7,808 nt of DNA from a virus (lineage: Duplodnaviria; Heunggongvirae; Uroviricota; Caudoviricetes). The translations under genes and the position numbers were made by a program. Below are positions 601-7,808 of the stretch, one piece after another (position 1 is the stretch's first letter; each line of letters starts with the position of its first letter). The notes under the pieces are model-generated. The model was not told where the DNA came from and did not search any database. It worked only from the letters and a program-made list of their open reading frames with translations. The stretch is taken from IMG/VR virus record IMGVR_UViG_2617270940_000002, positions 1 through 7,808 of that record; one strand, given 5' to 3'.

Positions 601-633
601 AAAAAATGGAAAAACCCGCTCGACGGCGGGTTT
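601..633 (-). terminator. intrinsic terminator-like hairpin with U-tract (minus-strand orientation), ~130 bp upstream of the essD fragment
   Basis: Stem 612-619/626-633 (AAACCCGC/GCGGGTTT, 5 GC pairs) with loop TCGACG; on the minus strand it is followed by UUCCAUUUUUU (611-601); the plus-strand tail has only 3 T. Confidence 0.4.
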
Positions 634-639
634 AAGCTG

Positions 640-1059
640 TGTGACGAAGTAACCACTCTTAACAGCATAACCAATTTTTTACGTACGTAAACCACTAAAT
701 GATATTTGCGAGAATGCTACCGAGTATTGAAAACACCACTACAAATACATAAGCAAATCTCAACAAATAACCAACAAATAATTTCCAGCGTTATTTTTAG
801 CTGGTTTAAATTGAATCTTCAAATTATAGAGCACTTATAAATAACAGCCATTAATATAAATTGGCTAATAGATTTATTTTTATTCAGCCAAGAGCCATGA
901 ATAGGATTCGATAGAAAAAGTTCAGATAAAAATAGAGATCTACTTCACAAATCAAATGAGAAACCAAAACTTACATCTTGAAATAATCACATTGATTAGA
1001 TGAATATTTATCGCGCAGTGACATCATTTTTTAATAATAGTTCAAAAAAAGGGCTCACG
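640..1059. promoter_or_regulatory. AT-rich divergent regulatory region between porin start and the late-operon terminator; exact promoters unresolved
   Basis: ~420 bp, strongly AT-rich, no ORF of 60 aa or more; porin SD AAGGG at 1049-1053; tandem 11-bp repeat at 760-781; TATAAT hexamer on the minus strand at 828-823; no convincing -35/-10 pair found by eye. Confidence 0.3.
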
Positions 1060-2142
1060 ATGAAAAAATTAACAGTGGCAATTTCTGCTGTAGCTGCATC
1101 AGTACTGATGGCGATGTCTGCTCAGGCAGCTGAAATTTATAATAAAGACAGTAACAAGCTGGATCTGTACGGGAAAGTTAATGCTAAGCACTACTTCTCC
1201 TCTAATGATGCAGATGATGGTGATACTACTTATGCCCGTCTTGGCTTCAAAGGTGAAACCCAAATCAACGATCAACTGACTGGTTTCGGTCAGTGGGAAT
1301 ATGAATTCAAAGGCAACCGCGCTGAATCTCAAGGTTCCTCCAAAGATAAAACCCGTCTTGCCTTCGCTGGCCTGAAATTCGGTGACTACGGCTCCATCGA
1401 TTATGGCCGTAACTACGGTGTAGCATACGACATCGGTGCGTGGACTGACGTTCTGCCAGAATTCGGTGGCGATACCTGGACCCAAACAGATGTATTCATG
1501 ACTGGTCGCACCACAGGTGTTGCAACTTATCGTAACAACGACTTCTTTGGTCTGGTTGATGGCCTGAACTTTGCAGCTCAGTATCAGGGCAAAAATGACC
1601 GAAATGAAGTAACTGAAGCTAATGGCGATGGTTTCGGTTTCTCAACTACTTATGAGTATGAAGGATTCGGCGTGGGTGCAACCTATGCTAAATCTGATCG
1701 CACTAATAATCAGGTTATCTACGGTAACAACGGTCTGAATGCTTCTGGTCAAAATGCTGAAGTATGGGCAGCTGGTCTGAAATATGATGCGAACAACATC
1801 TATCTGGCCACCACCTATTCTGAAACCCAGAACATGACTGTTTTTGGTAATAACCATATTGCCAACAAAGCACAAAACTTCGAAGCTGTTGCACAATATC
1901 AGTTCGACTTCGGCCTGCGTCCATCCGTTGCTTACCTGCATTCTAAAGGAAAAGACTTGGGTGTTTGGGGTGATCAGGACCTGGTTGAATATGTTGATGT
2001 AGGTGCAACCTATTACTTCAACAAAAATATGTCCACTTTTGTTGACTACAAAATCAACCTGATTGATAAGAGCGATTTCACGAAAGCATCTGGCGTTGCT
2101 ACCGATGATATCGTTGCTGTAGGTATGGTTTACCAGTTCTAA
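1060..2142 (+). CDS. nmpC: phage-encoded outer-membrane porin, OmpC/OmpF superfamily (NmpC/Lc type), intact, 360 aa with signal peptide
   Basis: ATG 1060 with SD 6 nt upstream; signal peptide [23 protein letters not shown] then AEIYNKD...; C-terminal ...VAVGMVYQF ends in Phe as in beta-barrel porins; convergent with the Q gene as in DLP12. The ORF-track start at 1000 is an upstream in-frame extension. Confidence 0.9.
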
Positions 2143-2305
2143 TTTGATTACTAAAAGATATGTTGTGGGAGGCTTTGCCTCCCCAACATATAAGTGGCTC
2201 CCTCAAGCCACTTCCTTTAGAAGCACAACCTTGCTTCTAACTATACAAACCTTCTGTTATATATTACCCTTTATTTTTGGGGGCGTTTCAACGCCCCATT
2301 TTTAA
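2143..2305 (+). ncRNA. structured 3' region immediately downstream of the porin stop, candidate IpeX-like sRNA / 3'UTR
   Basis: Three strong consecutive hairpins (2158-2191, 15-bp stem with one bulge; 2192-2213, 8-bp stem; 2217-2240, 9-bp stem) then a terminator at 2280-2303; IpeX is described as lying immediately downstream of the nmpC stop codon and ~167 nt long, and this span is ~163 nt. Confidence 0.35.
2280..2303 (+). terminator. rho-independent terminator (plus strand) ending the porin/3'UTR transcript
   Basis: GC stem GGGGCG (2280-2285) / CGCCCC (2292-2297), loop TTTCAA, followed by A-TTTTT (2298-2303). Confidence 0.55.
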
Positions 2306-2330
2306 TAACTTTTAGTAAATAATTGGCGTA

Positions 2331-2714
2331 TTAATTAGAGTTATTAACAACGATATCCATCTCTAACCGGATATCTAATGCCATTAACATCCCTTCAATT
2401 ATGCCCTCAGCCTTCTGTAACCTTTTCCCGATATAACCATCAGAGCAGCAATGCTTACCTGCCAGTGACATGAATGTCATACCGACTACATAATAATCTA
2501 CTAATAAATCGTGCAAATCGCTGTTGTTCTTTTTCAGACGGGCCATGCACCCGCAAATGATCATCGCGTCATCGTCACAACATTGCGGGCGAGATTTTAC
2601 TTTTGAAGTAATTAATCCCTTAAAACCGGCGGCAATGGACGACCAGGTCACATCTTCATGATTATTAGCCGCCCACGCTCCCCAACGCTCAAGAACCATC
2701 TGAATATCACGCAT
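2331..2714 (-). CDS. quuD: late-gene antiterminator Q (DLP12 QuuD type), 127 aa
   Basis: Translation [26 protein letters not shown]...[16 protein letters not shown]... recognised as QuuD; ATG at 2714 with SD GGAG 8 nt upstream; the ORF-track start at 2729 is an in-frame TTG extension. Confidence 0.85.
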
Positions 2715-2799
2715 CAACTTACTCCACAAAAATCAGACCAGAACGCCAATTACAAGCAAAAATCAACGAAACAGTATTAGTTGATTGTTATCTCTGACT

Positions 2800-2940
2800 T
2801 CATACTCCTGCTCCTGTCAGGGTTTTGGCGTAATTCTTCAGTATTCGGTAATCGGTCAAAACAGAACCGGGGAAACGATATAAGCGCAGACGCCCCCAGC
2901 GGTGGCGAAGACGTTCTGCCATATAAAACTCAAACATCAT
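2800..2940 (-). CDS. ylcG: small protein YlcG-like (46 aa)
   Basis: Hand translation [46 protein letters not shown]; its ATG overlaps the rusA stop (ATGA at 2940-2937); size and position match ylcG between rusA and quuD in DLP12; below the ORF-track size cutoff. Confidence 0.6.
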
Positions 2941-7372: not shown

Positions 7373-7808
7373 GGTAATGACTCCAACTTACTGATAGTGT
7401 TTTATGTTCAGATAATGCCCGATGACTTTGTCATGCAGCTCCACCGATTTTGAGAACGACAGTGACTTCCGTCCCAGCCTTGCCAGATGTTGTCTCAGAT
7501 TCAGATTATGTCGCTCAATGCGCTGAGTGTAACGCTTGCTGATTACGTGCAGCTTTCCCTTCAGGCGGGATTCATACAGCGGCCAGCCATCCGTCATCCA
7601 TATCACCACGTCAAAGGCCGACAGCAGGCTCAGAAGACGCTCCAGTGTGGCCAGAGTGCGTTCACCGAAGACGTGCGCCACAACCGTCTTCCGGAGCCTG
7701 TCATACGCGTAAAACAGCCAGCGCTGACGTGATTTAGCACCTACGTAGCCCCACTGTTCGTCCATTTCAGCGCAGACAATCACATCGCTGCCCGGTTGTA
7801 TGCGCGAG
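7373..7808 (-). mobile_element. IS1-family insertion sequence, partial copy, exact inverted duplicate of 1-436, terminal IR at inner end (7373-7395)
   Basis: Begins GGTAATGACTCCAACTTACTGATAGTG at 7373; 7373-7808 is the reverse complement of 1-436 (spot-checked at both ends; InsB translations identical). Confidence 0.9.
7388..7807 (-). CDS. insB: IS1 transposase InsB, C-terminal portion (5' end outside window)
   Basis: Translation identical to the left-copy InsB fragment; frame open to the window end. Confidence 0.85.

Follow-up and report, generated by a model that had tools for sequence, protein, structure and literature searches.

The 188-nt spacer between a prophage porin gene and the convergent gene of a Q-type antiterminator is densely packed with hairpins, which raises the question of what these hairpins do. 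The original prediction offered two answers, an IpeX-like small RNA and/or a terminator of late transcripts, and suggested alignment with the ipeX sequence of Escherichia coli K-12, RNA folding with covariation analysis, and 3'-end mapping on both strands as checks. Here, we analysed the spacer within the whole 7,808-nt stretch of IMG/VR record IMGVR_UViG_2617270940_000002 (the window), which is a segment of a DLP12-like lambdoid prophage of E. coli. Two genes define the setting:

1060-2142, plus strand: intact prophage porin gene, NmpC/Lc type (open reading frame list; Pfam Porin_1, E = 3.6e-152)
2331-2714, minus strand: quuD, Q-type late antiterminator gene, convergent with the porin gene (Pfam Phage_antitermQ, E = 3.5e-53)

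The porin annotation is also found in genomes that are 100% identical. The stop codons of porin and quuD lie at 2140-2142 and 2331-2333, respectively. The hairpin array starts at position 2143 of the plus strand, directly behind the end of the porin protein at 2142, and is thus the 3' untranslated region of the porin gene. The window itself is bounded by two 436-nt IS1 ends in inverted orientation (1-436 and 7373-7808) and looks like a draft-assembly contig broken inside IS1. On the left, IS1 leaves only some 12 codons of the holin gene essD, whose ATG is at 472-470 on the minus strand. The two IS1 junctions occur together in no complete genome of our collection, the best coverage being 94%.

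Folding of the spacer placed the following elements, all on the plus strand:

2158-2191, plus strand: hairpin 1, 8 + 7 bp (15 bp) with a bulged base at 2166 and a UUU loop, -22.2 kcal/mol
2192-2213, plus strand: hairpin 2, 8 bp, -10.4 kcal/mol; the two loop-closing pairs are absent from some variants
2217-2240, plus strand: hairpin 3, 9 bp, -9.6 kcal/mol
2248-2276, plus strand: unpaired invariant segment, candidate seed for ompC (fold, duplex computation, and variants collected by BLAST)
2280-2303, plus strand: Rho-independent terminator of the porin/IpeX transcript, GC-rich stem 2280-2297 (7 bp, -12.5 kcal/mol) followed by AUUUUU (terminator scan and fold)

The three stem-loops and their coordinates are exactly those that had been predicted, and the plus-strand terminator was borne out by the terminator scan, the fold, and the equivalent 3' end mapped in K-12 by Term-seq. 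A 196-nt stretch covering the array folded at -67.7 kcal/mol on the plus strand compared with a shuffle mean of -35.2 kcal/mol (z = -8.3), and at -71.6 kcal/mol on the minus strand (z = -8.2). On each strand none of 200 dinucleotide shuffles reached the native value, so that the suggested folding check gave a z score of about -8 on either strand. Three stable hairpins, an unpaired segment of about 40 nt, and a terminator make up the architecture of IpeX, in which the hairpins would shield both IpeX and the upstream mRNA from nucleases; a 3' end mapped 3 nt past hairpin 1, described below, fits such protection.

Comparison with K-12 answered the question of identity. Together with its flanks, the spacer matched the nmpC-quuD spacer of K-12 prophage DLP12 with a mean column identity of 97% over 320 columns, and on its own it was 95.2% identical to MG1655 over 186 nt. 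About eight substitutions and a single 1-nt indel separate the two sequences, every one of them in loops, the bulge, or the flanks. The proposed alignment with K-12 ipeX thus returned 95-97% identity to the published locus, the Term-seq end coincides to the base, and the span, which had been put at about the K-12 length, is 188 nt here and 189 nt in K-12, in direct continuation of the porin stop codon. Matching sequence follows the lc gene in phage PA-2 and the porin gene in 36 phage records. We consider it very likely that this spacer represents ipeX in a prophage of the DLP12/PA-2 type, and with it the structured 3' untranslated part of the mRNA for the prophage porin, a judgment made jointly with the mechanism of OmpC repression discussed below. 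The element is therefore already known, and is found here with an intact porin gene upstream:

2143-2303, plus strand: IpeX RNA, the 3' untranslated region of the porin mRNA, nominally beginning at the stop codon and ending with the U-run of the terminator (K-12 homology, Term-seq, and literature)

Of 5426 complete E. coli genomes, 2510 contain the array, never with an annotated feature beneath it. The K-12 RefSeq annotation lists micF and micC, and ipeX is absent from it; a scan of the whole window against Rfam at E <= 1 gave no match. A clean annotation is hence the main value of this work, as the RNA is left unannotated by RefSeq in some 2,500 complete E. coli genomes and has no matching Rfam model. 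In strains UTI89 and DLL7555, the array accompanies the porin gene at loci that lack quuD, indicating that it belongs to the porin gene and not to Q. IpeX represses OmpC and OmpF (PMC5069750, PMC7177473, PMC3333887), and a 2025 review describes it as an RNA of about 160-167 nt that is processed from a longer porin transcript.

We then placed the 3' ends listed for K-12 by Adams et al. 2021 (PMC7815308, Supplementary file 1) on the window. In K-12 the porin gene is on the minus strand, and the ends at 574367/574366 of that strand correspond by their listed flanking sequence to window positions 2303/2304, the last U of ...CGCCCCAUUUUU. The terminator call at 2280-2303 agrees to the base with this end, carried over by homology, and the plus-strand terminator may therefore be regarded as experimentally supported through its K-12 counterpart. 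A further end, at 574476 on the same strand (PMC7815308), falls on window position 2194, 3 nt past hairpin 1 and without a U-run, and was probably generated by nuclease trimming up to hairpin 1, which would guard it. This end points to an RNA that was trimmed or processed: the porin mRNA with a protected 3' end, or else a short piece from the 5' part of IpeX. At 5743xx-5745xx, the same tables (PMC7815308) list no other 3' end on either strand, and quuD is probably silent in K-12. For the mapping on both strands that had been called for, the K-12 tables thus give the ends at 2303/2304 and 2194 on the porin strand and none on the quuD strand, which says little, as quuD is probably silent in K-12.

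According to this arrangement, a transcript from the porin promoter runs through the porin gene and stops at the intrinsic terminator at 2280-2303, as the K-12 3' ends show by homology; its 3' part is then freed, as the literature has it, to give a small RNA with a length of about 160-167 nt. By the same terminator, porin transcription is kept from proceeding antisense into Q. We noted a weak sigma-70-like pair over the porin stop codon (2114-2143; TTGCTG, an 18-nt spacer, TCTAAT) that fell under the threshold of our scan and could provide IpeX with a start of its own. In K-12, strong 3' ends occur at the IpeX terminator despite the IS5 element between the array and the porin promoter.

Natural variation was assessed in 38 distinct versions of the array, all at least 90% identical, gathered from E. 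coli genomes by BLAST and from IMG/VR contigs by an exact 20-nt match at 2250-2269. The covariation analysis of these 38 versions revealed no two-sided pair changes and a score equal to that of shuffles, the divergence being too low. With no compensatory changes among copies this similar, the structure rests on thermodynamics and on the placement of substitutions. Of the cells, 97.4% were paired, compared with 41-48% when the partners were slid. In six pairs a one-sided change gave a further standard pair type, always a G-U wobble, the main case being A2221G in hairpin 3, which was found in 9 of the 38 variants. With the 20 selected columns set aside, variation was seen at 14 of 78 positions in stems versus 25 of 63 positions outside them (Fisher p = 0.005). 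The common polymorphisms lay at the bulged base of hairpin 1 (2166) and in each of the four hairpin loops. Judged on seven variants gathered without selection, the longest invariant stretch was the unpaired one that separates hairpin 3 from the terminator.

In different strains, insertion sequences are concentrated within and near the array. IS5 lies near the porin 3' end in K-12 (L001:4592-5786), the IS5-like ISKpn26 replaces most of the porin gene at another locus (L042:1375-2355), and IS1 sits just past the terminator at a third (L155, equivalent to window position ~2312). Locus L146 was considered as a candidate for an array without a porin gene and was rejected, as it carries an IS200-like insertion that separates hairpin 1 from the stop codon (equivalent to window positions ~2150-2155).

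The second part of the original prediction, a terminator of late transcripts, depends on where late transcription starts. The Q proteins of Stx phages share 78-81% identity with QuuD, and in these phages dRNA-seq and Term-seq locate the pR' start near Q, with tR' lying 258 nt downstream of it (PMC7547250). When the minus strand of the window was compared by BLAST with the sequence that follows Q in a Stx2 phage, an 83-nt match emerged at 610-692 and nothing within 2143-2330. We therefore define the following feature:

601-691, minus strand: late promoter (pR'/tR') module (conservation after Q in other loci, terminator scan, and the pR' start of Stx phages)

The module, which lies between the porin start and essD, consists of a -35 element TTTACG (691-686) within the perfect palindrome TTTACGTACGTAAA (691-678), a -10 element TATGCT (669-664), and a hairpin (633-612) followed by a T-run. 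The palindrome TTTACGTACGTAAA is a candidate Q-binding element. A scan for QuuD relatives, with one genome per species, gave 30 loci, and in ten of these the module begins about 30 nt past the Q stop codon. These ten loci are from Shigella/E. coli, Trabulsiella, Pantoea, Citrobacter, Xenorhabdus, and Providencia, and the module is also present in a Stx2 phage. Its consensus comprises AGTTTACGTACGTAAAAA, a -10-like TAnnCT, GTTAAGAGTGGTnACTTCGnCACA, and a hairpin with a subsequent T-run. In the record of Stx2 phage II (AP005154), the -35/-10 pair is annotated some 165 nt downstream of where this homology and the dRNA-seq distance place the promoter.

Since Q and the module are about 30 nt apart in those ten loci and about 1.66 kb apart here, the porin gene and the array constitute a cargo insert:

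~693 to ~2352, no strand assigned: cargo insert (moron) comprising the porin upstream region, the porin gene, and the IpeX array (gap between Q and the module of ~1.66 kb here and ~30 nt in ten loci)

The insert is self-contained and lies between two sites that are adjacent in relatives, as is characteristic of a moron. Promoter region, porin, IpeX, and terminator form one cargo unit, inserted antiparallel between Q and the late promoter. On the right, Q-gene homology ends after ...EMD, at about 2352, and the last ~7 quuD codons fall within the inserted segment. An 8-bp inverted repeat (GATATCC...GGATATC, 2352-2375) is located in the last quuD codons, where that homology ends, at the apparent right-hand joint of the insert. 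The gap between Q and pR' is a recurrent cargo slot, and other cargo occupies it at three further loci. In phage 1H12 (L006:2879-5360), the slot contains the blc lipocalin gene, convergent with Q like the porin gene; in Shigella phage 75/02 (L007:1882-2661), it holds about 780 nt with one open reading frame; and in Citrobacter braakii (L017:3891-6226), it holds about 2.3 kb encoding a 345-aa membrane protein and two small open reading frames. That the late promoter lies beyond the porin gene in DLP12-type prophages is one of two points at which our results go past the known element, the other being the ompC match described below. It also means that the late transcript never traverses the array, and the proposal of a late-transcript terminator fails.

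With the late promoter at 691-601, any transcript that leaves quuD through the array would be an early, pR-derived one. The minus-strand hairpins, mainly hairpin 1 with its CUUUUAG tail, could stop such transcripts and insulate the porin gene from an antisense run, possibly as a second role beside IpeX; we regard this as unlikely. The two genes are convergent, hairpin 1 is very stable (-22 kcal/mol), and the A-run 5' of it on the plus strand reads UUUU on the minus strand, so that the CUUUUAG tail noted in the original prediction is present, but the signals for ending quuD transcripts are weak. The run amounts to just four U adjoining an AU-rich stem base, no other hairpin has a U-run at that place, and the GC-rich terminator hairpin is followed on the minus strand by CAAAAAUAAA. 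That hairpin is flanked by T-runs on both of its plus-strand sides, which is not the arrangement of a bidirectional intrinsic terminator. The terminator scan made no minus-strand call within 2143-2330, and the lack of quuD-strand 3' ends at 5743xx-5745xx in the K-12 tables points the same way but adds little, as quuD is probably untranscribed there.

We return to IpeX as the RNA of the porin strand and to its known effect on OmpC. Duplexes were computed between the seed segment and the K-12 ompC leader (-81 to +60), and the two RNAs were also co-folded. In the computed duplex, 2248-2262 pairs with ompC -7 to -21 in 15 contiguous bp, including one G-U pair, and 2268-2276 pairs with -23 to -31 in 9 bp, the helices being separated by an internal loop of 5 nt and 1 nt. 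The whole duplex of 2248-2276 with ompC -31 to -7 had an energy of -26.4 kcal/mol. This value was matched by 1 of 500 shuffled segments and by none of 3000 natural 141-nt segments drawn from 1.45 Mb of enterobacterial and phage DNA, the best of which reached -25.7 kcal/mol. When full-length IpeX was co-folded with the leader, the four hairpins were retained and the same helix formed, with a net gain of -21 kcal/mol. The predicted site spans the Shine-Dalgarno sequence GAGGG (-13 to -9) and overlaps the site predicted in the same run for the MicC 5' end (-15 to -30), where the first 30 nt of MicC gave -26.5 kcal/mol on ompC.

The target is widely available, with an ompC leader at least 99% identical in 5365 of the 5426 E. 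coli genomes, and strain AH65 carries such a leader together with an exact copy of window positions 1900-2800. The duplex with ompF was weak (-18.8 kcal/mol) and not above chance, as 34 of 500 shuffles equaled it. Full-length IpeX gave long, loop-ridden duplexes with the ompC and ompF leaders that were no better than those of shuffles, and duplex computation found no match between the seed segment and the leader of the prophage's own porin. Beyond the 29 nt there is no ompC-like stretch and no wider homology to the ompC leader.

The literature on this point is not uniform. Reviews state that IpeX does not base-pair with ompC or ompF, the 2025 review describes the mechanism as not depending on complementarity alone, and IpeX has been called Hfq-independent (PMC8313858). 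Reports on its dependence on Hfq are inconsistent. In the literature that we found on IpeX with ompC and pairing, the duplex is not described; it may be noted elsewhere. The 2006 paper of Castillo-Keller, Vuong and Misra in J Bacteriol 188:576 is said to have found the ompC 5' UTR to be required, reportedly detected no complementarity, and is said to have shown a need for Hfq in the case of ompF and not of ompC.

In the mechanism that we propose, translation would be blocked by the unpaired segment 2248-2276, which would bind positions -31 to -7 of the ompC leader and mask both the Shine-Dalgarno sequence and the site of MicC. Such pairing would explain the known drop in OmpC upon expression of the phage porin. 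The reported 5' UTR requirement would fit a site within the 5' UTR, and a long accessible duplex with ompC beside a weak match with ompF would fit Hfq-free action on ompC and Hfq-dependent action on ompF. With moderate confidence, we propose that IpeX, carried by a phage, may mimic MicC in function, its invariant segment pairing with ompC -31 to -7 (15 + 9 bp) and occluding the Shine-Dalgarno sequence. This reading contradicts the review statement that there is no base pairing, and the complementarity to ompC is a computed one and no proof of an interaction. By matching the ompC ribosome-binding site over 29 nt, the segment offers a new, simple, and testable mechanism for IpeX. OmpC is the receptor of phages PA-2 and 434. 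If the mechanism is true, the phage would swap the host porin for its own and silence the host gene through a MicC-like seed carried on the same transcript.

Alternatively, the array might act only in cis, as a cargo terminator with hairpins that stabilize the 3' end of the mRNA, in which case it would have no role in trans and the ompC match would be coincidental. The stable end 3 nt past hairpin 1 is what exonuclease stalling would give, a terminator of its own is typical of a cargo gene, and no covariation was seen. Against these points stand the several papers that report OmpC/OmpF to be lowered by IpeX, as well as the features of the unpaired 29-nt segment, which is the most conserved part of the array and forms a computed duplex of -26.4 kcal/mol with the ompC ribosome-binding site, a value equaled by 0 of 3000 natural segments. 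We consider a purely cis-acting element to be quite improbable.

A still poorer account takes the array as the tR' of a late pR' transcript on which Q acts, as for lambda 6S RNA or StxS. The array does adjoin the Q gene, the place of pR'-tR' in lambda and Stx phages, but the module of this Q family, including the dRNA-seq-supported pR' of Stx phages, follows Q by about 30 nt in ten loci and is found here at 691-601, 1.45 kb further on the minus strand. Nothing in 2143-2330 resembles a pR' module, and the array does not lie downstream of a Q-dependent promoter on the Q strand, as a lambdoid tR'/pR' leader does; this account is very hard to uphold. Finally, we give practically no credence to a small protein or a REP-type dispersed palindromic repeat: a 53-aa open reading frame with a TTG start (2144-2305) is present in the mechanical list and old phage records annotate hypothetical open reading frames at the array, but 1-nt indels in natural variants at 2152/2153, 2166, and 2274-2275 break its frame, and hairpin 1 occurs at this locus only (2942 places in 2500 genomes, equal to the count for the whole region, with a median of 1 place per genome), which led us to reject a REP-like repeat.

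The IpeX locus of K-12 DLP12 (qsr') and the lc region of PA-2 are the closest known counterparts, with the same position, strand, hairpins, terminator, and mapped 3' end; nmpC of K-12 is split by IS5, whereas the porin gene described here is intact. The resemblance to MicC, the chromosomal repressor of ompC, would be a functional one that lies in the shared target site. The predicted IpeX site (-7 to -31) overlaps the MicC site on ompC (-15 to -30), the two duplexes have equal energies (-26.4 and -26.5 kcal/mol), and the seeds are alike, reading GUUAUAU-AUUAC-CCUUUAUU in IpeX and GUUAUAU-G-CCUUUAUU in MicC. The MicC seed is located at the 5' terminus of the product of a stand-alone gene, whereas the IpeX segment is internal and part of an mRNA 3' UTR, and the IpeX duplex, unlike that of MicC, also spans the Shine-Dalgarno sequence. 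Local alignment with micC gave only an 11-nt match, with no Rfam hit, and IpeX is not a member of the MicC family by homology. This 11-nt identity, CCAACATATAA, connects window positions 2182-2192, in the 3' arm of hairpin 1, with the internal nucleotides 63-73 of micC (L165:284-294). It includes CAUAUAA, a heptamer that also occurs in the ompC target site, and may be due to chance.

StxS and lambda 6S RNA are, like IpeX, prophage-encoded near Q and end at an intrinsic terminator, and StxS acts on host genes. These RNAs are transcribed on the Q strand from pR', whereas IpeX belongs to the porin unit on the opposite strand, with the pR' module elsewhere (691-601). Small RNAs that derive from 3' UTRs and share the terminator of the parent mRNA are a known class in Salmonella and E. 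coli. Unlike them, IpeX has a terminator tail of just five U, and its dependence on Hfq is reported inconsistently; like them, it resides in a 3' UTR, shares the mRNA terminator, has a U-rich stretch before that terminator, and is, according to the literature, released by processing.
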